The notes beneath the pieces are model-generated. The model saw only the letters and a list, made by a program, of their open reading frames with translations, was not told where the DNA came from and did no database searches. 12,882 nucleotides of DNA from a virus, in the UHGV virus genome UHGV-0331123, one strand, 5' to 3'. Made by a program: the position numbers and the translations under genes. Of this stretch, positions 986-11,806 are shown piece after piece. Position 1 is the stretch's first letter, and each line of letters starts with the position of its first letter.

Positions 986-2038
986 ATGAAAAATACTGTA
1001 AAAATAAACAGTGTTGATTTAATCAACGCTGATTGCCTGCATTTTATTCAGTCCCTGCCTGATGATTCCATTGACCTGATTGTTACCGATCCGCCGTACT
1101 TCAAGGTGAAACCCAACGGCTGGGACAATCAGTGGAAAGGGGACGAAGATTACCTTAAGTGGCTGGACCACTGTCTGGCCCAGTTCTGGCGGGTGTTAAA
1201 GCCTGCCGGAAGCCTTTACCTGTTCTGTGGGCATCGCCTGGCATCTGATATTGAGATCATGATGCGTGAACGTTTCAACGTGCTTAACCATATCATCTGG
1301 GCGAAGCCGTCCGGACGTTGGAATGGGTGTAATAAAGAAAGTCTGCGCGCATATTTTCCTGCCACAGAGCGCGTTCTGTTTGCTGAACATTACCAGGGGC
1401 CATATCGCGGCAAAAGTGACGGCTATGCGGCAAAAGAAAGGGAACTCAAACAGCACATAATGGCACCGCTGATATCGTATTTCAGGGATGCTCGTGCCGA
1501 ACTGGGTATAACGGCAAAACAAATTGCCGAAGCCACAGGTAAGAAAAATATGGTTTCCCACTGGTTTGGTGCCAGTCAGTGGCAGTTGCCGAATGAGGCT
1601 GACTATCGGAAGTTACAGGCACTGTTTTCCCGTATAGCGGCAGAGAAGTTTCAGGAACAACAACTGGAACAACCACACCACCAGCTGGTGGCATCTTATG
1701 ATTCACTGAATCGCAAATATTCTGAATTGCTGGATGAGTTTAAATCTCTCCGGCGCTATTTCTCCGTATCAGTCTCCGTGCCTTATACCGATGTCTGGAT
1801 GCATAAACCCGTTCAGTTCTACCCGGGTAAACATCCGTGTGAGAAACCTGCGGATATGCTCCGGCAAATAATCAATGCCAGTAGTCGACCTGGTGATCTG
1901 GTTGCTGATTTTTTTATGGGATCCGGTTCCACAATAAAAGCAGCAATGGCGCTGGGGCGTCGGGCCTTAGGTGTTGAGCTTGAGTCAGAGCGGTTTAACC
2001 AGACAGTGAAAGAGATAAACGAGCTGGTGGGGAAATAA
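986..2038 (+). CDS. DNA N6-adenine methyltransferase, beta class (N6_N4_Mtase family), phage-borne orphan
   Basis: 350 aa. Motif IV DPPY near the N-terminus (LIVTDPPYF) and motif I FxGxG near the C-terminus (DFFMGSGST); order IV then I defines the beta class. DPPY rather than SPPY favours N6-adenine. No cognate restriction gene is adjacent. Confidence 0.85.
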   Translation: MKNTVKINSVDLINADCLHFIQSLPDDSIDLIVTDPPYFKVKPNGWDNQWKGDEDYLKWLDHCLAQFWRVLKPAGSLYLFCGHRLASDIEIMMRERFNVLNHIIWAKPSGRWNGCNKESLRAYFPATERVLFAEHYQGPYRGKSDGYAAKERELKQHIMAPLISYFRDARAELGITAKQIAEATGKKNMVSHWFGASQWQLPNEADYRKLQALFSRIAAEKFQEQQLEQPHHQLVASYDSLNRKYSELLDEFKSLRRYFSVSVSVPYTDVWMHKPVQFYPGKHPCEKPADMLRQIINASSRPGDLVADFFMGSGSTIKAAMALGRRALGVELESERFNQTVKEINELVGK

Positions 2039-2324: not shown

Positions 2325-2669
2325 ATGACTCAAAAATATGAACTGATTGTGAAAGGGATCCGCAATTTTGAGAATAAAGTTACGGTAACTTTAGCGTTAC
2401 GGGACAAAGAACGCTTTGACGGTGAAATTTTTGACCTGGACATCTCGCTGGACCGTGTTGAAGGTGCCGCGCTGGAGTTTTATGAGGCAGCAGCCAGAAG
2501 GAGCATCAGACAGGTCTTCCTGGATGTTGCTGCCGGGTTATGTGAAGGGGATGAGCTGTCGCCGGAAAAGCGCCCCATAATTTTAGAGGCGCAGAATGTG
2601 TGGATAACCTACAAAGGAAAGCTACCGGGAAGAATTACTGGTTCTCTGAAGACTCCGCCGAAATGGTAA
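2325..2669 (+). CDS. Hypothetical protein (114 aa) inserted between holin and endolysin
   Basis: ATG at 2325 with GGAG 9 nt upstream, 4 bp after the holin stop; no motif I recognise. The 3' end overlaps a convergent minus-strand ORF by about 35 bp. Confidence 0.55.
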   Translation: MTQKYELIVKGIRNFENKVTVTLALRDKERFDGEIFDLDISLDRVEGAALEFYEAAARRSIRQVFLDVAAGLCEGDELSPEKRPIILEAQNVWITYKGKLPGRITGSLKTPPKW

Positions 2670-2907
2670 TTTCACCAGCATATTTTTCTTCCAGTAATAC
2701 CGCCAGCCACTTGAAAGAATTTTGTTGTTGCTGGGACCATTTGGGGTTGAGTGATTCAAGCTGGAGCGATGCCAGTGTTGGTTGCATTTGTTCCTTGGGA
2801 ATTGAGAATGCCAGATATGAAAATGCGACAGTAAGGGCATTTACATCATCCCGAAGCTTGGAAATGCAGTCGAGCAACTCCTGTAGAGAAATGGTGCTAT
2901 TGTCCAT
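2635..2907 (-). CDS. Hypothetical protein (90 aa), convergent to the lysis genes
   Basis: ATG at 2907 on the minus strand with GAGAGG 7 nt upstream; the track start at 2913 is a TTG. Balanced, helical-looking composition and lower GC than its surroundings. Confidence 0.5.
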   Translation of the reverse strand: MDNSTISLQELLDCISKLRDDVNALTVAFSYLAFSIPKEQMQPTLASLQLESLNPKWSQQQQNSFKWLAVLLEEKYAGEITISAESSENQ

Positions 2908-3012
2908 AAACAATCCTCTCTATTGTATTTAACTATTCCTTGCCTGATTCAACAGGCCGGGACAGATAAACATATCCAGGGTTCAGAAACCGATAAATCC
3001 TGATAAATATCC

Positions 3013-3555
3013 ATGAACGTAAAAATCAGATACGGCCTGTCGGCTGCCGTTCTGGCACTGATTGCCGTCGGTGCGCCTGCGCCTGATATTCTCGACCAGT
3101 TTCTGAATGAAAAAGAAGGTAACCACACAACGGCATACCGCGATGGTTCCGGCATCTGGACCATCTGTCGGGGTGCCACGGTGGTGGATGGAAAACCCGT
3201 TTTTCCCGGTATGAAACTGTCGAAGGAAAAATGCGACCAGGTTAACGCCATTGAACGGGATAAGGCGCTGGCATGGGTGGAGCGCAATATTAAAGTGCCA
3301 CTGACCGAACCACAGAAAGCGGGTATAGCGTCATTTTGTCCCTATAACATTGGCCCCGGTAAGTGTTTCCCGTCGACGTTTTATAAGCGGCTGAATGCCG
3401 ATGATCGTAAGGGGGCATGCGAGGCGATTCGCTGGTGGATAAAAGATGGTGGGCGTGATTGCCGCCTGACAAAAGGGCAGAAGAATGGCTGTTATGGGCA
3501 GGTCGAGCGGCGCGATCAGGAAAGCGCACTGGCGTGCTGGGGGCTGGAGCAATGA
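3013..3555 (+). CDS. SAR (signal-anchor-release) endolysin, T4-lysozyme-like glycoside hydrolase, phage 21 R-type
   Basis: Gly/Ala-rich weakly hydrophobic N-terminal segment (GLSAAVLALIAVGAPAP) typical of a SAR domain. Catalytic triad at exactly E35, D44, T50 (EGNHTTAYRDGSGIWT), the spacing of R21 and T4 lysozyme. Stop overlaps the Rz start (ATGA). Confidence 0.9.
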   Translation: MNVKIRYGLSAAVLALIAVGAPAPDILDQFLNEKEGNHTTAYRDGSGIWTICRGATVVDGKPVFPGMKLSKEKCDQVNAIERDKALAWVERNIKVPLTEPQKAGIASFCPYNIGPGKCFPSTFYKRLNADDRKGACEAIRWWIKDGGRDCRLTKGQKNGCYGQVERRDQESALACWGLEQ

Positions 3556-4088
3556 AAATTAATCCGGATCTTATAGGCGTTGTCGTTATTGCTGGCCTTT
3601 CGGTCGCTCTCGTCAAGAGTTGCTCTCACGCCAGTAATCTTCAGAGCGATAACGACGTTCTGCGAAGTGACAACTCTATGCTGGGGCAGGTAATCGCCAC
3701 CCAGGCATTCAACTTCAATCGATTCAATCAGGTTGCAGAACATGCCAACAGTCTTAACTCCCTGATCGACACCAGCACCGAAAAAACCGTAATCGAATAC
3801 CGGGAGATTCTCCGCCGTGAAAAAACCTGTGATCTGCCTGTTCCTGCTGATATCGCTGGTGGGTTGCTCGAATACACGTACCGTTTACGTGCCAGCGCCA
3901 TGCACACCGATACCGGCAGACCTAATGAAGCCTATGATCGTACCGCTACCACCAGCTCAATGACCTACTGCCAAGCTGTCTTGTGGATTAAGCCGCTACT
4001 GGCGTTGATAGAAAAAGGAAATAATAATTTTTCGAGTATTCGTGAAATTGATGAGTTGCGTTACAGACCATCTGAGCATGGCCAGTAA
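3552..4088 (+). CDS. Rz-like inner-membrane spanin (i-spanin)
   Basis: ATG at 3552 overlaps the endolysin stop; N-terminal TM helix (LIGVVVIAGLSVALV) then a periplasmic helical domain; contains an embedded +1-frame lipoprotein ORF. The C-terminal roughly 30 codons lie in AT-rich DNA. Confidence 0.8.
   Translation: MKINPDLIGVVVIAGLSVALVKSCSHASNLQSDNDVLRSDNSMLGQVIATQAFNFNRFNQVAEHANSLNSLIDTSTEKTVIEYREILRREKTCDLPVPADIAGGLLEYTYRLRASAMHTDTGRPNEAYDRTATTSSMTYCQAVLWIKPLLALIEKGNNNFSSIREIDELRYRPSEHGQ
3817..3963 (+). CDS. Rz1-like outer-membrane lipoprotein spanin (o-spanin), embedded in the +1 frame of Rz
   Basis: Translation by hand: (GTG)KKPVICLFLLISLVGCSNTRTVYVPAPCTPIPADLMKPMIVPLPPAQ. Signal peptide with lipobox LVGC and a Pro-rich mature part, as in lambda Rz1. 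Start is GTG with GGGAGA upstream. Too short for the ORF track. Confidence 0.65.
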   Translation: MKKPVICLFLLISLVGCSNTRTVYVPAPCTPIPADLMKPMIVPLPPAQ

Positions 4089-4165
4089 GGTTGCAGGAAA
4101 TTTAAAATCTGGCGATGAAATTTAATATTAGAAATTCATTGCCTAGTGAGATTAATAATGGGCAT

Positions 4166-4203
4166 CCCTTTGTGACGATAAGCTTTAACACATTCACAAA
4201 GGG
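4166..4203. terminator. 10-bp perfect hairpin between the Rz stop and the 3' end of the minus-strand moron; possible bidirectional terminator
   Basis: CCCTTTGTGA (4166-4175) and TCACAAAGGG (4194-4203) flank an 18-nt loop and are followed by ATATTTAATAT on the + strand. No clean U-tract on either side, so terminator function is uncertain. Confidence 0.35.
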
Positions 4204-4256
4204 ATATTTAATATAGGGTGGTTAATTCCCACTTGCTGTGGTGTTTAGGGGGTAAT

Positions 4257-4949
4257 TCAAATCTTATCTAACTCATTATAGGCTTCGATAATAAAAATTC
4301 TGATTTTAATAAGGCATGATTCAATGAAAGGAATTACTTCATGGTCATTCCCATGGAATCTTATTTTTTTCTCTTCGGTAATGACTATGTTTAAAGGTAC
4401 ACCATTACCACTTCTTTGTAATTTCCCATTTTCGAAAGTAAAGTCTTCTAATTTTTTGCCATTGATGTGGTTGTTTTTAAAGAGAATTTTTGCTGAGCTT
4501 CCTGCTGTGATTAAACCAAAACCATCTACGCTCACACTTAGGTCTTTAACAGAACTCTCTTCTCTTAAGGGGATTGGTTGTCTGTGCTTTACTTCATTAG
4601 TGAGATTACACATCATTTCCAACCAAGATTCGCCAGTGTGATAATCCTGTATAGAAGTAAAAATTTTATATAATGGAGAAGATGATGGTGGGTTTATTTT
4701 TAGCGTCTTTGAGAAAAATTTATCAATAAACTCTCTTTTTCCGTAAGGGAAATATATTTTGGGGCGCTCATCATTACTGCGTGGAGAAATATATTTATCA
4801 TAGGTATCATTAGCGAGATACTCTAAGGAACTTCGTAAGTTTTCCAAAATAGCTTTGACTTTTACAGGCTTGATATGCTGTGTCTGTCTCATTATGTCAA
4901 GACTTTCTTCAACTTCTTGCAATAAGTCCAACGAGCCTTCTCTAGACAT
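4257..4949 (-). CDS. Hypothetical 230-aa protein on an AT-rich moron at the lambda bor position; candidate lysogenic-conversion or anti-phage gene
   Basis: Minus-strand ORF with strong Shine-Dalgarno (AAGGAG about 10 nt upstream of ATG at 4949). GC is visibly much lower than the flanking phage genes and it runs opposite to the late operon, with AT-rich promoter-like DNA upstream (4950-5100). No catalytic motif I can name. Confidence 0.7.
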   Translation of the reverse strand: MSREGSLDLLQEVEESLDIMRQTQHIKPVKVKAILENLRSSLEYLANDTYDKYISPRSNDERPKIYFPYGKREFIDKFFSKTLKINPPSSSPLYKIFTSIQDYHTGESWLEMMCNLTNEVKHRQPIPLREESSVKDLSVSVDGFGLITAGSSAKILFKNNHINGKKLEDFTFENGKLQRSGNGVPLNIVITEEKKIRFHGNDHEVIPFIESCLIKIRIFIIEAYNELDKI

Positions 4950-5299
4950 ACAGGTAATTCTCCTTTATGAATTTTCAACATGTTATAACTAATAATATAT
5001 TTATCATATAACTGTATGAATAAATTGTGAGATTAGTAATGCAAGTTTCTATCCATAGTGTTCTCTAAGTACCCGCTTCCATCATGTTGTTACGGACGGT
5101 ATGGCTAAAACAAAGCACCTGAAGTTAAACGTTCTGAACTTTATGCTCGTTGAGCATATGAATTATCTGTAACCCGATGCGCTGGTTGTGGTTCACATTG
5201 ATGGTCGTAATCAGCAGCGGTGGTGCCTGATGGCATGCAACTTCTTACTTATAAAACTTCGTATGGAATTGTTGCCATAACGAGCCCAGCTTAGCAGTT

Positions 5300-5400
5300 T
5301 TTAATGGGTCCTCCCGGCAGTGTGTCCTGCCACGGGGCGGGAGCGTCGCGGAAAAAGGCTAGTTTTTGAAATTTCATTCGTCATCACCACTACTGTAATG
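5300..5400. other. cos site (cosQ-cosN-cosB region), lambda-like
   Basis: GGGTCCTCCCGG...CACG|GGGCGGGAGCGT|CGCGG closely parallels remembered lambda cos (…GGGTCCTTTCCGG…TTACG|GGGCGGCGACCT|CGCGGG…). By analogy the 12-nt cohesive end is 5335-5346. The distance to the terS start (about 175 bp) is similar to lambda's, and a TTCGTCAT motif lies downstream as in lambda. Confidence 0.7.
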
Positions 5401-5520
5401 TATTGATATTACGGTTATTTTATTTTTATGGTGTCGATTTTGATTGTTTTTTGTTCACCACTAACACCGTTTGCCTAAAGTTGTTCGCAAGATGCATGTT
5501 TAAAACATTCTGGAGCGGGT

Positions 5521-6015
5521 ATGGATCGAGAGTTAAAAAATCTGACGCTGAATATCAGTCAACTGGCGGCACTGTCAGGTGTACATCGCCAGACTGCTGC
5601 GGCAAGGCTGCAAAATCTACCCGTTGCAGGGGGGCATGAAAGCAACCTCAAGCTTTATCGGGTGGTTGATATTGTGTCGGCATTTCTGGCATTGCCACCG
5701 CCGGTTGCAGAAGGCGAAATGGACGCGCATGAGCGCAAAGCCTGGTATCAGTCTGAACGTGAGCGTCTTAAGTTCGAACAGGAAACGGCACAACTCATTC
5801 CGGCCAGTGATGTCAGACGGGAGTTTGCCATCTGGGCAAAAGCGGTCGTGCAGGTGCTGGAGACATTACCGGATATTCTTGAACGTGACTGCGGTCTGCA
5901 GCCTGCCGCTGTGAGCCGTGTTCAGTCCATTATTGATGATCTGCGCGATCAGATAGCCCTGCGGGTGACTGAAGCAGGTGCGGATGATGAGGAGGAATTA
6001 CAGCAGGAGGAGTAA
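5521..6015 (+). CDS. Terminase small subunit (Nu1-like, N-terminal HTH)
   Basis: GGAG 6 nt upstream of ATG 5521; helix-turn-helix LNISQLAALSGVHRQTAAARL; acidic C-terminus; stop overlaps the terL start (TAATG); directly downstream of cos. Confidence 0.8.
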   Translation: MDRELKNLTLNISQLAALSGVHRQTAAARLQNLPVAGGHESNLKLYRVVDIVSAFLALPPPVAEGEMDAHERKAWYQSERERLKFEQETAQLIPASDVRREFAIWAKAVVQVLETLPDILERDCGLQPAAVSRVQSIIDDLRDQIALRVTEAGADDEEELQQEE

Positions 6016-8117
6016 TGCTGAATCAGGAAACCGCAAAGGCAGCACGAACCGATTCAGGTTATATCCTTCGCGCACCGAGACGAATGCGGGTTGCTGATGC
6101 CGTTGCTCAGTATATGCGGGTGCCCATGGGGGCAGGGAACTCAGTCCCGTGGGATCCGCTGGTGGCACCGTATGTTATTGAGCCGATGAACTGCCTGGCC
6201 TCGCGTGAATACGACGCAGTGATATTTGTTGGTCCGGCACGAACCGGCAAGACTATCGGCCTGATTGACGGCTGGGTGATTTACAACGTGATTTGCGATC
6301 CTGCGGATATGCTGATCATTCAGATGACGGAGGAAAAAGCCCGCGAACACTCCAAAAAACGACTTGCCAGAACGTTTCGCGTCAGCCCGGAAGTGGTCAG
6401 TCGCCTGAGTCCGAACAAAAATGACAACAACGTTTATGACAGAACATTCCTTGCTGGCAACTACCTGAAAATCGGCTGGCCGTCAGTCAATATCATGTCC
6501 TCATCAGATTATAAATGCGTGGCGCTGACGGATTATGACCGTTTTCCGGAAGATATTGATGGCGAGGGGGATGCCTTCTCTCTTGCCTCAAAACGTACCA
6601 CCACATTTATGTCCAGTGGTATGACGCTGGTGGAGAGTTCCCCCGGCAGGGATGTGAAGGATGTGAAATGGCGACGGACTTCACCGCATGAGGCTCCACC
6701 AACCACGGGGATACTGTCGCTCTATAACCGTGGCGATCGCCGTCGCTGGTACTGGCCCTGTCCACACTGTGGTGAGTATTTTCAGCCCTGCGGCGATGTG
6801 GTTGCTGGTTTCCGTGATATTGCCGATCCCGTGCTGGCAAGTGAGGCGGCTTATATTCAGTGTCCTTCCTGTTCAGGACGGATTATGCCTGAACAAAAAC
6901 GTGAGCTGAACGGACGTGGGGTCTGGTTGCGGGATGGTGAATCCATCAATGCGGATGGCAGTCGTTATGGTGATCCCCGACGCTCACGTATTGCGTCATT
7001 CTGGATGGAGGGTCCGGCAGCTGCTTACCAGACACTCTCGCAACTCGTTTACAAACTGCTTACTGCAGAACAGGAATACGAGACAACCGGAAGTGAAGAA
7101 ACACTCAAGACGGTTATCAATACCGACTGGGGATTACCTTATCTTCCCCGCGCCAGCATGGAGCAACGAAAAAGTGAACTGCTTGAGCAGCGGGCAGAGC
7201 CAGTTCCTTCCCACAGTGTGCCGGATGGCGTTAATTTCCTTGTGGCGACAGTGGATGTGCAGGCGGGACGTCATCGCCGTTTTGTGGTTCAGGTAACGGG
7301 CTATGGCAGCCGTGGCGAACGCTGGATTATTGATCGTTACAACATCACGCAGTCATTGCGCGGTGACAGCGACGGGGAGAGCCAGCGAATTGATCCGGCC
7401 AGCTATCCGGAAGACTGGGATGTCCTGCTGACGGATGTTTTTCATAAAAGCTGGCCGCTGGCCTCCGATCCTTCTCAACAAATGCGACTGATGGCAATGG
7501 CGGTGGACTCCGGCGGTGAAGACGGGGTCACTGATAATGCCTATAAATTCTGGCGTCGTTGCCGTCGTGATGGCCTTGGTAAACGTATTTACCTGTTTAA
7601 GGGCGACAGCATCCGGCGCGCAAAACTGATCACTCGTACATTCCCTGATAACACCGGACGAACGGGCCGACGGGCGCAGGCCGCAGGTGATGTGCCGCTC
7701 TGGCTTCTTCAGACGGATGCACTGAAAGACCGGGTGAATAACGCGTTATGGCGTGACTCGCCAGGTCCCGGCTATGTGCATTTCCCTGACTGGCTGGGGA
7801 GCTGGTTTTACGACGAACTGACGTATGAAGAGCGGAGCAGTGACGGGAAATGGAGTAAGCCTGGTCGCGGTGCCAACGAAGCTTTTGACCTGATGGTGTA
7901 TGCCGAGGCTCTGGTCATTCTGCATGGATACGAAAAGATCCGCTGGCCGGATGCACCGGAGTGGGCGAGCCGGGAAACCTGGCTGGAGTGTGTCCAGGAC
8001 AGTACCGAACCGTCATCCTCACCGGAACCGGTATCCACGCCTGTTAAAAAACAAAAACGGAAGAAAACAGTAACTGACGATGTTAACCCCTGGCTGACTT
8101 CCGGAGGATGGTTATGA
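6015..8117 (+). CDS. Terminase large subunit, lambda gpA family
   Basis: 700 aa; P-loop-like VGPARTGKT near the N-terminus; size and position match gpA; translationally coupled to terS and to the gpW-like gene. Contains a CPHC…CPSC Cys4 motif. Confidence 0.88.
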   Translation: MLNQETAKAARTDSGYILRAPRRMRVADAVAQYMRVPMGAGNSVPWDPLVAPYVIEPMNCLASREYDAVIFVGPARTGKTIGLIDGWVIYNVICDPADMLIIQMTEEKAREHSKKRLARTFRVSPEVVSRLSPNKNDNNVYDRTFLAGNYLKIGWPSVNIMSSSDYKCVALTDYDRFPEDIDGEGDAFSLASKRTTTFMSSGMTLVESSPGRDVKDVKWRRTSPHEAPPTTGILSLYNRGDRRRWYWPCPHCGEYFQPCGDVVAGFRDIADPVLASEAAYIQCPSCSGRIMPEQKRELNGRGVWLRDGESINADGSRYGDPRRSRIASFWMEGPAAAYQTLSQLVYKLLTAEQEYETTGSEETLKTVINTDWGLPYLPRASMEQRKSELLEQRAEPVPSHSVPDGVNFLVATVDVQAGRHRRFVVQVTGYGSRGERWIIDRYNITQSLRGDSDGESQRIDPASYPEDWDVLLTDVFHKSWPLASDPSQQMRLMAMAVDSGGEDGVTDNAYKFWRRCRRDGLGKRIYLFKGDSIRRAKLITRTFPDNTGRTGRRAQAAGDVPLWLLQTDALKDRVNNALWRDSPGPGYVHFPDWLGSWFYDELTYEERSSDGKWSKPGRGANEAFDLMVYAEALVILHGYEKIRWPDAPEWASRETWLECVQDSTEPSSSPEPVSTPVKKQKRKKTVTDDVNPWLTSGGWL

Positions 8118-8326: not shown

Positions 8327-9834
8327 TGGCAATTCTTGATGATGTGATTGGCGTTTTTTCACCTGGATGGAAAGCGGCAAGGCTGCGTTCCCGTGCGGTG
8401 ATCCAGGCTTATGAAGCCGTAAAAACGACGCGGACACACAAAGCCCGACGGGAGAACCGAACTGCCGACCAGCTAAGCCAGTACGGGGCCGTGTCGTTAC
8501 GTGAGCAGGCCCGTTACCTTGATAACAACCACGATCTGGTTATTGGTGTATTTGACAAGCTGGAAGAACGGGTGGTGGGGAAAAACGGGATTATTGTCGA
8601 GCCACATCCGGTATTACGCAATGGGGCCATTGCCCGTGACCTGGCTGCGGAGATTCGCACCCGATGGAGTGAATGGTCTGTCAGCCCGGAAGTCACCGGG
8701 CAGTTTACCCGTCCGATGCTGGAACGTCTGATGCTGCGTACCTGGCTGCGCGATGGTGAGGTGTTTGCCCAGATGGTTTCCGGGCGCATAAACAGCCTGA
8801 CGCCTTCTGCCGGTGTTCATTTCTGGCTGGAGGCGCTCGAGCCAGACTTTATTCCCATGACCAGTGATGAGAGCAACAGGCTGAATCAGGGCGTGTTTGT
8901 TGATGACTGGGGGCGTCCCGAAAAATATCTGGTGTATAAAAGCCGTCCCGTATCCGGACGGCAGATGGAAACCAAAGAAGTGGATGCAGAGCGAATGCTG
9001 CATCTTAAATTTGTTCGCCGTCTGCACCAGATGCGCGGGACGTCTTTGTTGTCCGGTGTGCTGATCCGCCTCAGTGCCCTGAAAGATTATGAAGATTATG
9101 AGCTGACTGCAGCAAGGATCGCCGCTGCTCTGGGGATGTACATCCGCAAAGGCGACGGGCAGAGCTATGAACCGGATGGTAATGGCAGCAAGGATAAGGA
9201 ACGCGAGCTTACCATTCAGCCAGGCATTATTTACGACGATCTGAAACCCGGCGAAGAAATCGGAATGGTGAAGTCGGATCGCCCCAATCCTAACCTTGAA
9301 ACTTTTCGTAATGGTCAGTTGCGTGCCGTGGCGGCGGGCAGTCGTCTGAGTTTTTCCAGTACAGCGCGCAACTATAACGGCACTTACAGCGCCCAGCGTC
9401 AGGAGCTGGTTGAATCTACTGATGGCTACCTGATCCTGCAGGACTGGTTTATTGGTGCCGTCACCCGCCCGATGTATCGTGCATGGCTGAAACAGGCTGT
9501 GGCATCCGGTGTTATCAGGCTACCCCGCGATCTTGACCGTTCTTCACTGTATACCGCGGTGTATTCCGGACCGGTGATGCCGTGGATTGACCCTGTTAAG
9601 GAGGCTGAGGCCTGGAAAATCCAGATTCGTGGTGGAGCGGCGACAGAATCAGACTGGGTACGTGCTGGTGGTCGTAATCCGGATGATGTCAAACGTCGGC
9701 GCAAGGCCGAAATTGATGAAAACCGCAAGCTGGATCTGGTATTTGATACCGATCCGGCCAGTGATAAAGGAGGCAGCAGTGCCGCAACGAAACGACAGGA
9801 GCCGCAGCACACCGACGACCAGTCCGAAGAATAA
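8326..9834 (+). CDS. Portal protein, lambda gpB-like
   Basis: 502 aa from ATG 8326 (TGATG overlap with the gpW-like stop; the track's upstream extension overlaps gpW in another frame). Size and gene order match gpB; acidic C-terminal tail. Confidence 0.85.
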   Translation: MAILDDVIGVFSPGWKAARLRSRAVIQAYEAVKTTRTHKARRENRTADQLSQYGAVSLREQARYLDNNHDLVIGVFDKLEERVVGKNGIIVEPHPVLRNGAIARDLAAEIRTRWSEWSVSPEVTGQFTRPMLERLMLRTWLRDGEVFAQMVSGRINSLTPSAGVHFWLEALEPDFIPMTSDESNRLNQGVFVDDWGRPEKYLVYKSRPVSGRQMETKEVDAERMLHLKFVRRLHQMRGTSLLSGVLIRLSALKDYEDYELTAARIAAALGMYIRKGDGQSYEPDGNGSKDKERELTIQPGIIYDDLKPGEEIGMVKSDRPNPNLETFRNGQLRAVAAGSRLSFSSTARNYNGTYSAQRQELVESTDGYLILQDWFIGAVTRPMYRAWLKQAVASGVIRLPRDLDRSSLYTAVYSGPVMPWIDPVKEAEAWKIQIRGGAATESDWVRAGGRNPDDVKRRRKAEIDENRKLDLVFDTDPASDKGGSSAATKRQEPQHTDDQSEE

Positions 9835-9847
9835 TTCCTGGTTCAGG

Positions 9848-11806
9848 ATGCAGGCTGGTCACCAGAGTGACGCGGATATTTATATTTATGACGAGATTGG
9901 TTTCTGGGGTGTTACAGCGAAGCAGTTTATCAGTGATCTGAATGCACTGGGCGATATCACCCACATTAATCTCCATATTAATTCACCGGGTGGCGATGTC
10001 TTTGAAGGCATCGCCATTTTTAATGCGCTGAAAACACATGGTGCGTCCATTACCGTTTATGTCGACGGTGTGGCGGCGTCAATGGCGTCGGTCATTGCGA
10101 TGGTGGGAAACCCGGTCATTATGCCGGAAAACACCTTCATGATGATTCATAAACCATTTGGCTTTACGGGCGGTGATGCGGAGGACATGCGCACCTATGC
10201 CGACCTGCTCGATAAGGTTGAGGCGGTTCTGTTACCCGCTTATGCACAGAAAACCGGGAAAACCACCGATGAAATTGCTGCCATGCTGGCGGATGAGACC
10301 TGGATGTCCGGTGCCGAATGTCTGGCACAGGGATTTGCTGATCAGGTGACGCCAGCCGTTAAGGCAATGGCATGTATTCAGTCAAAACGTACAGAGGAAT
10401 TTAAAAAGATGCCGGAATCCATTCGAAACATGATTACTCCGCCACGCAACAGTGCTCCACGCGTACAGGATGATGAACCTGCAGCCTCCCGGACGCCAGT
10501 GCAGGCAGCAGCACCCGTGGTGGATGAAAACAGCATCCGTGCGCAGGTCCTGGCAGAGCAAAAAGCGCGTGTAAACGGTATTAATGATCTGTTTGCCATG
10601 TTTGGCGGGCGTTATCAGGCGCTGCAGGCTCAGTGTCTTGCCGATCCTGAATGTTCGCTGGAGCAGGCCCGCGAAAAGCTGTTGAACGAGATGGGGCGCG
10701 AGTCCACGCCATCCAATAAAAATACCCCGGCTCATATTTATGCCGGTAACGGTAATTTTGTGGGGGACGGGATCCGCCAGGCGCTGATGGCGCGTGCCGG
10801 ATTTGAAAAAACCGAACGTGATAATGTCTACAACGGGATGACCCTGCGTGAATATGCCCGTATGTCACTGACTGAACGGGGTATTGGGGTTTCCAGTTAT
10901 AACCCGATGCAGATGGTCGGTGCGGCGTTCACACACAGTACGTCTGACTTCGGTAATATTCTGCTGGATGTTGCGAACAAAGCCATTCTGCAGGGCTGGG
11001 AAGATGCCCCTGAAACCTATGAACAGTGGACGCGGAAAGGTCAGTTGTCTGATTTTAAAATTGCCCATCGTGTGGGTATGGGGGGCTTCAGTGCTCTGCG
11101 TCAGGTGCGTGAAGGGGCGGAATATAAATACGTCACCACCGGAGATAAACAGGCCACTATTGCACTGGCGACCTATGGCGAGCTGTTCAGTATCACCCGT
11201 CAGGCCATTATCAATGATGATCTGAATATGCTGACCGATGTCCCGATGAAACTGGGCCGTGCGGCGAAATCCACTATTGCCGATCTGGTTTATGCCATTC
11301 TGACGTCTAACCCGAAAATCTCCACAGATAATGTAAGTCTGTTCGATAAAGCGAAACATGCAAACGTACTGGAGAGCGCTGCAATGGACGTGGCATCGCT
11401 GGATAAAGCCCGCCAGTTGATGCGCGTTCAGAAAGAGGGTGAGCGTCATCTGAATATTCGTCCTGCGTTCGTACTGGTACCGACGGCGATGGAGTCTGTT
11501 GCTAACCAGGTCATTCGCTCCTCAAGTGTCAAGGGGGCTGACATTAACGCCGGTATTATTAACCCGGTGAAAGATTTTGCGACCGTTATTGCAGAGCCTC
11601 GTCTTGATGATAACAGCCAGACCACCTTCTACCTGGCTGCGTCCAAAGGCTCCGATACGATTGAAGTGGCTTATCTCAACGGTGTGGATACGCCATATAT
11701 TGATCAGATGGAGGGCTTCAGTGTGGATGGCGTGACAACGAAAGTGCGTATTGACGCTGGTGTCGCGCCAGTTGATCACCGCGGTCTGGTGAAATGTACG
11801 GCGTAA
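9848..11806 (+). CDS. Tripartite capsid gene: ClpP-like (S14) prohead protease + scaffold-like linker + HK97-fold major capsid domain
   Basis: N-terminal region matches ClpP-family hallmarks (INSPGGDV, GVAASMASVIAM with the Ser nucleophile, MMIHKP with His). Middle region is Ala/Gln-rich and helical. C-terminal roughly 350 aa has capsid-like size and composition. Single-ORF protease-scaffold-capsid organisation is described for Salmonella phage Gifsy-2. Start taken as ATG 9848 because the upstream extension overlaps the portal gene. Confidence 0.8.
   Translation: MQAGHQSDADIYIYDEIGFWGVTAKQFISDLNALGDITHINLHINSPGGDVFEGIAIFNALKTHGASITVYVDGVAASMASVIAMVGNPVIMPENTFMMIHKPFGFTGGDAEDMRTYADLLDKVEAVLLPAYAQKTGKTTDEIAAMLADETWMSGAECLAQGFADQVTPAVKAMACIQSKRTEEFKKMPESIRNMITPPRNSAPRVQDDEPAASRTPVQAAAPVVDENSIRAQVLAEQKARVNGINDLFAMFGGRYQALQAQCLADPECSLEQAREKLLNEMGRESTPSNKNTPAHIYAGNGNFVGDGIRQALMARAGFEKTERDNVYNGMTLREYARMSLTERGIGVSSYNPMQMVGAAFTHSTSDFGNILLDVANKAILQGWEDAPETYEQWTRKGQLSDFKIAHRVGMGGFSALRQVREGAEYKYVTTGDKQATIALATYGELFSITRQAIINDDLNMLTDVPMKLGRAAKSTIADLVYAILTSNPKISTDNVSLFDKAKHANVLESAAMDVASLDKARQLMRVQKEGERHLNIRPAFVLVPTAMESVANQVIRSSSVKGADINAGIINPVKDFATVIAEPRLDDNSQTTFYLAASKGSDTIEVAYLNGVDTPYIDQMEGFSVDGVTTKVRIDAGVAPVDHRGLVKCTA

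Follow-up and report, generated by a model that had tools for sequence, protein, structure and literature searches.

In phage lambda, the slot between Rz/Rz1 and cos holds bor, a gene that lies on the opposite strand and has its own expression signals. A different gene occupies this slot in the virus genome UHGV-0331123, in the 12,882-nucleotide stretch of DNA that we analyzed and that is called here the window. What does this gene do for its carrier, and how did it come to stand next to cos? We found that the gene, located at 4257-4949 on the minus strand, makes up, along with a putative 5′ control region, a prophage moron that is horizontally mobile and sits just upstream of cos. Judged from a predicted model, its product of 230 amino acids (aa) and the family to which it belongs are probably members of the HEPN superfamily at the level of the fold, as a non-canonical variant. 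Our favored reading, which we hold tentatively and at slightly less than an even chance, is that the protein would act as a HEPN-like single-gene abortive-infection or exclusion protein.

The gene and the island that carries it

The locus is made of the following features.

About 4055 to 5305: cargo island of ~1.25 kb with a low guanine-cytosine (GC) content, missing from related prophages that have both flanks in common with the window
4257-4949, minus strand: cargo gene of 230 aa (WP_000085744.1, PHROG 13652), ATG start, 26.6 kDa product
3552-4088, plus strand: Rz (i-spanin, 178 aa), left neighbor of the island, a match to the Rz-like spanins of PHROG 214 (E 2.8e-54)
3817-3963: Rz1 lipoprotein, embedded within Rz
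5335-5346, plus strand: cosN-like cohesive-end sequence GGGCGGGAGCGT, right neighbor of the island, resembling lambda cosN

The open reading frame (ORF) at 4257-4949 is a real gene. At the composition of the island, a 230-codon open frame has a chance probability of ~2e-8, and full-length homologs of the product exist in more than 1000 sequence clusters. The GC content of the island was 0.355 compared to 0.517 for the remainder of the window. The gene itself had a GC content of 0.339 and a GC content at third codon positions (GC3) of 0.307, with GC3 of the neighboring genes varying from 0.50 to 0.57. This difference, along with movement independent of the flanks, bears out the initial annotation, which had described a compositionally foreign gene on the opposite strand between Rz/Rz1 and cos. 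The position next to cos was confirmed as well: the record of phage cdtI begins exactly at the cosN-like site, and the record of mEp460_4F5 begins 5 nucleotides (nt) earlier. Of the first 17 bases at this site, 13 agree with lambda cos.

The borders of the island were seen in comparisons with related prophages of Escherichia coli. In one of them (L002), homology to the window stops at 3555, in the lysozyme gene, and restarts at 5306; this prophage has another spanin and does not carry the 230-aa gene. A second prophage (L003) has the same Rz and the same island up to position 5377, followed by a different DUF1441/terminase pair. Similarity to sequenced phages also begins at 5306.

At the Rz side, the low GC content does start inside the 3′ end of the gene, as had been noticed earlier; it falls in the last ~90 nt and amounts to 0.32 at 4002-4061. 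The accompanying suggestion that the insertion replaced the C-terminus of Rz was dropped except for the very end. In a tblastn search, residues 1-170 of the 178 match, at 72–85% identity, the Rz proteins of the island-free phages mEp237, HK225, LLS and Flotzy, and the nucleotide alignment with mEp237 stays good across the AT-rich stretch, losing identity only at ~4050-4060. Since this AT-rich tail is common to the Rz genes of phages without the island, we regard it as native. The homology breakpoint thus lies near 4050-4060, and at most the last ~8-10 Rz codons were exchanged.

Mobility of the island and turnover of cargo

The island was found at 95–100% identity in 97 of the 5426 complete E. 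coli genomes (~1.8%), and common lineages of the species have the gene, with ST131 records among them. The 356-bp segment upstream of the gene (4950-5305) was detected in 98 of the 5426 genomes, essentially always together with the gene. We observed that the island is paired with two different terminase modules in E. coli prophages. Homologs in Enterobacter and Citrobacter (57–70% identity; overall range 57–83%) occupy the same slot, again on the opposite strand, between a spanin gene and genes for HNH, Terminase_4 and an HK97-type large terminase (TerL), while the prophages that host them have GH19 endolysins, other holins, and spanins unrelated to the Rz of the window. For example, nucleotide similarity to an Enterobacter locus (L048) spans only 4264-5075, which covers the gene and ~125 bp upstream of it; in Citrobacter, only 5 nt separate the gene from the stop codon of the spanin. 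Among 23 independent IMG/VR contigs, the gene was typically flanked by genes on the opposite strand, and its neighbors included four types of small terminase, three types of large terminase, three types of endolysin, and HNH.

A comparison of the locus across related prophages, which had been proposed in the initial annotation, revealed cargo turnover in the slot between the spanin and cos. Other E. coli prophages have in this place a DUF6979 gene, a minus-strand gene for a lipopolysaccharide (LPS) heptose(II)-phosphate phosphatase, or just a 50-aa ORF, and mEp237 has four small ORFs. The island has a composition distinct from its surroundings, is present or absent between homologous phages, and moves independently of its flanks; the pattern is that of a moron at a recombination-permissive junction.

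Three side observations concern the same slot. The phosphatase mentioned above, which acts on the LPS core, was found in E. coli ETEC4079 (L073 2717-3292, minus strand) and is a cargo of the lysogenic-conversion type. Several Enterobacter-type prophages carry a 485-aa ORF divergently upstream of the homolog (L048 3455-4912, minus strand; L096 1075-2532; L099 3448-4905; L103 3304-4761). This ORF, which is not part of the E. coli island and had no Pfam or PADLOC match, may represent either additional cargo or a lineage-specific partner gene. Finally, the window and L003 alleles differ in 5 synonymous and 8 non-synonymous codons, and these 13 differences are too few for an inference on selection.

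Predicted fold and conserved site

HEPN domains are four-helix bundles with an R-x4-6-H motif, where a polar residue, often Asn, directly follows the Arg; helix 2 has an acidic residue that is conserved, typically as part of E-x3-[KR], and close to the motif, and inserts between helices 2 and 3 are frequent (PMC3710099). The HEPN proteins show metal-independent ribonuclease (RNase) activity and form dimers with a composite active site (PMC3710099). A test of the protein for a HEPN fold had been suggested beforehand. We built a monomer model with AlphaFold2 from a 29-sequence alignment; residue conservation was counted over 212 family sequences, and the identity of each region to the query was calculated from 159 non-redundant members. 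The model (mean predicted local distance difference test score, pLDDT, of 89.5) has these elements.

Residues 3-23 and 28-53: helices
Residues 54-91: loop-and-helix insert
Residues 92-119: kinked helix
Residues 124-202: β-rich module
Residues 205-229: final helix

The test was positive at the level of the fold. The predicted model has an up-down bundle of four helices, arranged as two α-hairpins, similar to solved HEPN domains. When the fold of the model was compared with known structures, entries of the HEPN superfamily made up 11 of the top 20 and ~16 of the top 60, including 1ylm, 1wwp and 2hsb, all three named as HEPN in PMC3710099. The insert at residues 54-91 lies between helices 2 and 3, as in HEPN domains, and consists of a loop with a near-invariant Y-F-P-Y-G (66-70) and a short helix (72-82).

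The conserved residues of the family gather around the position of the HEPN motif. We found that H122 is invariant (212 of 212 sequences) and that P68 (100%), K121 and Q101 (99% each), R39 (97%) and N118 (95%) are nearly or fully so. The segment T117-N118-x2-K121-H122 is located at the end of the model helix 109-119, which is the motif position in HEPN, and N118 is in register with the polar residue that follows the HEPN Arg. Helix 2 (28-53) carries E36 (90%), R39, and Glu or Asp at position 43 (98%), with the spacing E-x2-R and R-x3-E compared to the HEPN-typical E-x3-[KR]. Helix 2 and the motif helix form the conserved core with ~51% identity, while the β module is the most variable and gapped region with 18%. 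This variable module of ~80 residues comes directly after H122, an arrangement that may correspond to a sensor or gate within the protein itself. In Csx1, too, the HEPN motif is directly followed by an inserted β hairpin (PMC3710099).

The protein family

The protein WP_000085744.1 is labelled "hypothetical protein" in every source with a record of it. The only family that fits it from end to end is PHROG 13652, of unknown function, and a literature search returned nothing under WP_000085744 or phrog_13652. An exhaustive profile search retrieved 1033 representatives at E <= 0.001, of which 503 were at E <= 1e-10. Nearly all of them are standalone proteins of 220–250 aa that aligned over the full length. 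Loci of the family were found in Proteobacteria, Bacteroidota, Deinococcota, Firmicutes, Planctomycetota, the candidate phyla radiation (CPR), and archaea.

In 39 loci of the family, no neighbor cluster was held in common, except among syntenic Neisseria genomes. Because no neighboring gene is conserved across these loci, the protein would appear to work without a dedicated partner. A two-gene toxin-antitoxin module was dropped from consideration for the same reason.

Candidate expression signals

The 5′ and 3′ surroundings of the gene contain the following candidate signals.

4960-4965, minus strand: Shine-Dalgarno sequence AAGGAG, 10 nt upstream of the ATG, as read from the sequence
4992-5075, minus strand: 5′ region that travels with the gene, containing the candidate promoters and conserved upstream blocks
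5031->5003, minus strand: candidate promoter 1, sigma-70-like, −35 CTCACA at 5026-5031 and −10 TATGAT at 5003-5008, 9/12 matches
5020->4992, minus strand: candidate promoter 2, sigma-70-like, 9/12 matches
5026-5043 and 5069-5075, minus strand: conserved upstream blocks TGCATTACTAATCTCACA and CGGGTAC, respectively, from the alignment of E. coli and Enterobacter copies
4164-4175 / 4194-4205: inverted repeat with perfect 12-nt arms and an 18-nt loop, located where the Rz and cargo genes converge
5076-5305: segment of 230 bp, GC content 0.43, without an ORF, in E. coli specific to the island

The Shine-Dalgarno sequence was present, as the initial annotation had stated. The same annotation had described the upstream DNA as promoter-like, and here the outcome was mixed. 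Two candidate sites were found, and the alignment showed that the −35 CTCACA of the first one and the block upstream of it are kept in the Enterobacter copy; on the other hand, the promoter scan as a whole was not above chance, with 8 sites compared to 5.5 ± 2.9 expected in shuffled sequences. We also observed that TGCATTACTAATCTCACA and CGGGTAC are kept between the E. coli and Enterobacter copies though the coding identity is only ~71%. These blocks may be an operator or an UP-like element of the cargo promoter.

The hairpin beyond the 3′ end of the gene turned out to be longer than first described, with perfect arms of 12 bp rather than 10 bp. The arms at 4164-4205 are 100% complementary, the RNA fold has a z-score of −3.0, and none of the 200 shuffled sequences folded as well. 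Because neither strand has a proper T-tract, the hairpin does not qualify as a canonical intrinsic terminator, and it may mark a transcript end or act as a stabilizer. It is not kept in the Enterobacter or Citrobacter copies. An Rfam search of 3800-5700 gave only a microRNA-like match at the level of chance, located on the hairpin. Upstream of the gene, no convincing small ORFs or repeats were found in 4950-5305, and the part 5076-5305 had no match among sequenced phages. As a side observation, NZ_CP085638.1 has only the 5109-5305 part of this last segment.

Genomic contexts

Several neighborhoods of the family, in distant lineages, contain validated defense genes within two ORFs of the homolog, among them fused AriAB/PARIS, UG29 DRT, BrxH, DpdF, PsyrT and type II methyltransferases. 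For example, in a Bacillus cereus prophage (L062) the packaging genes are closely preceded by the homolog, which in turn has a PifA-like KAP NTPase immediately upstream (4372-5796, plus strand; PADLOC PifA, 6.7e-44). This pair suggests a small defense cluster in a Gram-positive prophage. In Clostridium perfringens, the homolog belongs to an island of variable content, two genes away from a position at which PD-Lambda-1 (3e-163) and a PDC-S04 Fic protein alternate.

A side observation was made at the Neisseria loci of the family, where the homolog is found inside an ABC-transporter operon: in some strains a gene for an AMP-binding enzyme is also inserted in this operon.

A model of action and its alternatives

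The fold-level result makes an anti-phage role plausible, and we rate an anti-phage or exclusion role of the protein as a real possibility that stays a little under an even chance. That the lysogen expresses the gene, that the protein cuts RNA, what triggers it, and that it defends the cell are all steps that we infer by analogy with solo HEPN abortive-infection proteins, namely HepS, AbiD/F, AbiU2, AbiV and RnlA/LsoA. The lysogen would make the protein constitutively from the promoter of the gene, and the protein would rest in an inactive state. A component of a superinfecting phage would be sensed via the variable β module, which would lead to activation. H122 would then serve as the general base, with K121 and/or R39 replacing the missing HEPN arginine, and RNA would be cut without a metal, so that translation is halted and the infection is aborted or the phage excluded. 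During lytic growth of the prophage itself, the gene would face late transcription from the opposite direction.

A broader reading joins all these elements. It would make the protein the first example of an unrecognized and widespread HEPN clade (at least 1000 clusters at 50% identity, in bacteria and archaea), absent from Pfam and from defense databases, in which the arginine is replaced by a Lys-His dyad within T-N-x2-K-H and a hypervariable β-sandwich phage sensor follows the His; its members would be solo sensor-effector abortive-infection RNases, shuttled by several unrelated temperate phage lineages in the last cargo slot before cos. Taken as one claim, this reading is rather doubtful.

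A number of results weigh against an abortive-infection protein of the HEPN type. With respect to the fold, Foldseek found no significant whole-chain match in the Protein Data Bank (PDB), searches of the PDB by sequence (phmmer and profile hmmsearch) gave only chance matches, and hhalign of the family profile against LsoA and RnlA, taken from E. coli records, returned a probability below 1%. With respect to the motif, no Arg or Lys was found 5–7 residues before H122 in the 212 sequences; the H-5 residue is Thr in 78% of them and the H-6 residue is Leu in 62%. With respect to annotation, hmmscan of the protein and 63 diverse relatives detected no Pfam, NCBIfam or PADLOC family beyond chance: PADLOC-DB v2.0.0 had zero families at E <= 10 for the protein and two chance-level matches among the 63 members. 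The protein is also not found in the DefensePredictor supplementary tables. The earlier statement that it has no recognizable motif is in line with these searches, since it is unnamed in all the libraries used. With respect to distribution, none of the 50,697 sequenced phage genomes has a homolog, and most chromosomal neighborhoods of the family are heterogeneous rather than defense islands. In Neisseria (L055 5001-5720; L065 6001-6714) the homolog is on the same strand as the ABC-transporter operon that surrounds it, between the permease genes and the ATPase gene; its stop codon and the ATPase start overlap over 4 nt in L055, and in L065 the stop is 2 nt ahead of that start. This operon context is unlike a defense island.

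The absence of the Arg lowers the claim for a canonical HEPN protein without excluding membership, because the HEPN family Parep1/8 keeps the His without the Arg and has other conserved basic residues (PMC3710099). The family is not filed as a canonical R-x4-6-H RNase. Whether the protein is a catalytic nuclease at all is, in our estimate, an even question, and the alternative that comes closest to the favored reading starts from this point. The protein could be a HEPN-like bundle that is not a nuclease and binds a ligand, a nucleotide or another protein, with a regulatory role in host or phage physiology that is unrelated to the killing of infected cells. The missing catalytic Arg speaks for it, as do the housekeeping-like contexts such as the Neisseria operon, and HEPN domains without the motif are described as non-catalytic substrate-binding modules (PMC3710099). 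No antitoxin or partner was seen in the 39 loci, though HEPN toxins commonly need one; against this stand the solo HEPN nucleases without an antitoxin, for example, HepS. We nevertheless consider the non-nuclease alternative unlikely. Because the invariant His, the Lys (99%) and the Asn (95%) occupy the catalytic position, together with R39, E36 and E43 on helix 2, the conserved pattern looks like an active site and not like a binding surface.

Could the gene instead benefit the phage? A counter-defense (anti-immune) gene, or a factor of induction, lysis or packaging, might be kept near cos for that purpose. In many types of prophages the gene keeps closely to the junction between lysis and packaging genes, and accessory genes at module junctions are in many cases counter-defense genes. 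Conversely, it is transcribed against the late operon and so is poorly placed for late expression. Many members of the family are chromosomal without nearby phage genes, including the archaeal and CPR ones, and the absence from all the sequenced phage genomes counts against a phage-serving role too. Altogether, such a role appears quite improbable.

A further alternative is a selfish toxin, or addiction element, that stabilizes the prophage; its antidote would be a small RNA or a peptide whose gene lies in the 356 bp upstream or at the hairpin. Acting as a toxin is typical of HEPN proteins (PMC3710099), and the E. coli island does have 356 bp of otherwise unaccounted-for DNA upstream of the gene, as well as a hairpin that is strong. 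The comparative data argue the other way. Neither the upstream DNA beyond ~125 bp nor the hairpin is kept in Enterobacter and Citrobacter, the Citrobacter gene leaves only the 5 nt to the spanin stop, and neither a conserved small ORF or repeat array nor a partner across the 39 loci was found. We give this explanation little credence.

The weakest alternative is a lysogenic-conversion factor like Bor, with an effect on the cell surface, on serum resistance or on adhesion. In its favor, the slot and the orientation are those of lambda bor, and another E. coli prophage has the minus-strand LPS phosphatase there. Against it, neither a signal peptide nor a lipobox or membrane segment was seen in the protein, whose N-terminal end is acidic and hydrophilic and whose predicted fold is a soluble helical bundle, and relatives occur widely in archaea and in bacteria from the environment. 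A surface protein was rejected on these cytoplasmic features as very improbable.

Comparison with known systems

The nearest analogue in the literature is the abortive-infection anticodon nuclease HepS, which the Gifsy-1 prophage encodes as a solo HEPN protein (PMC13043305). It is made constitutively as an inactive tetramer, is activated by the siphovirus tail-tip protein J, and cleaves tRNA anticodon loops (PMC13043305). No similarity in sequence could be detected between HepS and the 230-aa protein. HepS has the canonical R100-x4-H105, compared to T-N-x2-K-H in the 230-aa family, and does not have the ~80-residue β insert of the latter. Its activity and trigger were demonstrated, while the 230-aa protein is known from its sequence and a predicted model.

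The other relatives in function differ more. The E. coli RNase LS toxins RnlA and LsoA (5hy3, 7aex, 6y2r) are larger, multi-domain proteins with the canonical R-x4-H and with antitoxins RnlB and LsoB. The MNT-associated HEPN and HEPN-T proteins (4nqf, 1jog, 7ae2, 8xdj, 5yep, 1wwp, 1ylm, 2hsb) have ~120–150 aa, a nucleotidyltransferase antitoxin and the R-x4-H-x-Y motif; compared to them, the 230-aa family is standalone, has long inserts, and does not have the Arg. The lactococcal AbiD/AbiF, AbiU2 and AbiV follow the same working model, in which one HEPN protein produces abortive infection, and AbiV has a non-canonical arrangement of the active site within HEPN (PMC3710099). However, the PADLOC and Pfam models of the lactococcal families match none of the 63 family members, and both the motif and the insert differ. 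With lambda bor and other cos-proximal morons, the element shares the slot and the opposite-strand orientation, whereas Bor is a small outer-membrane lipoprotein and is unrelated to the cytoplasmic 230-aa protein. A prophage moron with a HEPN-type effector is thus of a familiar kind; the family itself is unnamed and its motif is non-canonical. The β module after the putative catalytic His is unlike any described HEPN defense protein.

Other features of the window

ORF calls along with Pfam and PHROG matches identified the window as the late region of a lambdoid prophage from E. coli, with the following gene order around the island.

7-378: Q-type antiterminator, C-terminal part
986-2038, plus strand: N6/N4 DNA methyltransferase (PF01555, 2.2e-42), between the Q antiterminator and the holin
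2105-2320: S21-type holin
2325-2669: DUF1327/YdfR gene
2635-2913, minus strand: 92-aa ORF (WP_000370545.1, hypothetical in RefSeq), antisense to the 3′ end of DUF1327/YdfR, within the lysis cassette
3013-3555: lysozyme
5521-6015: DUF1441 small-terminase-like gene (Pfam DUF1441, 2.7e-41)
6015-8117: TerL, lambda-type large terminase
Beyond TerL: portal, then a ClpP-protease/capsid fusion, then a cement protein

The methyltransferase is a further accessory gene of the late region, kept in related prophages that have different cos-proximal cargo. A Pfam search with the 92-aa ORF gave no match; on the opposite strand, this ORF may represent a second piece of cargo. In the fusion, a single ORF at 9587-11806 (plus strand) joins a ClpP-like prohead protease to the major capsid protein (PF00574 and PF25209), and RefSeq likewise describes a fusion protein. 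The E. coli strain 210221272 carries a stretch identical to the window with the addition of an IS3 inside Rz. This IS3-family insertion (L001 7592-8805, corresponding to window position ~3750) splits Rz into two pseudogene fragments.

Significance

If the favored reading of an abortive-infection or exclusion protein is true, the family would be a widely distributed single-gene immune protein that has been missed by PADLOC, Pfam and NCBIfam. The hypothesis is cheap to test, because the protein is small and standalone and its gene is found in common E. coli lineages. A gene without anti-phage activity would indicate that a fold resemblance and a hot-spot location are insufficient evidence for defense. 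A gene with it would provide a natural test of whether HEPN RNases function without their signature arginine, and the cos-proximal slot of lambdoid and HK97-like prophages would become, like the P2/P4 hotspots, a place to mine for defense cargo.

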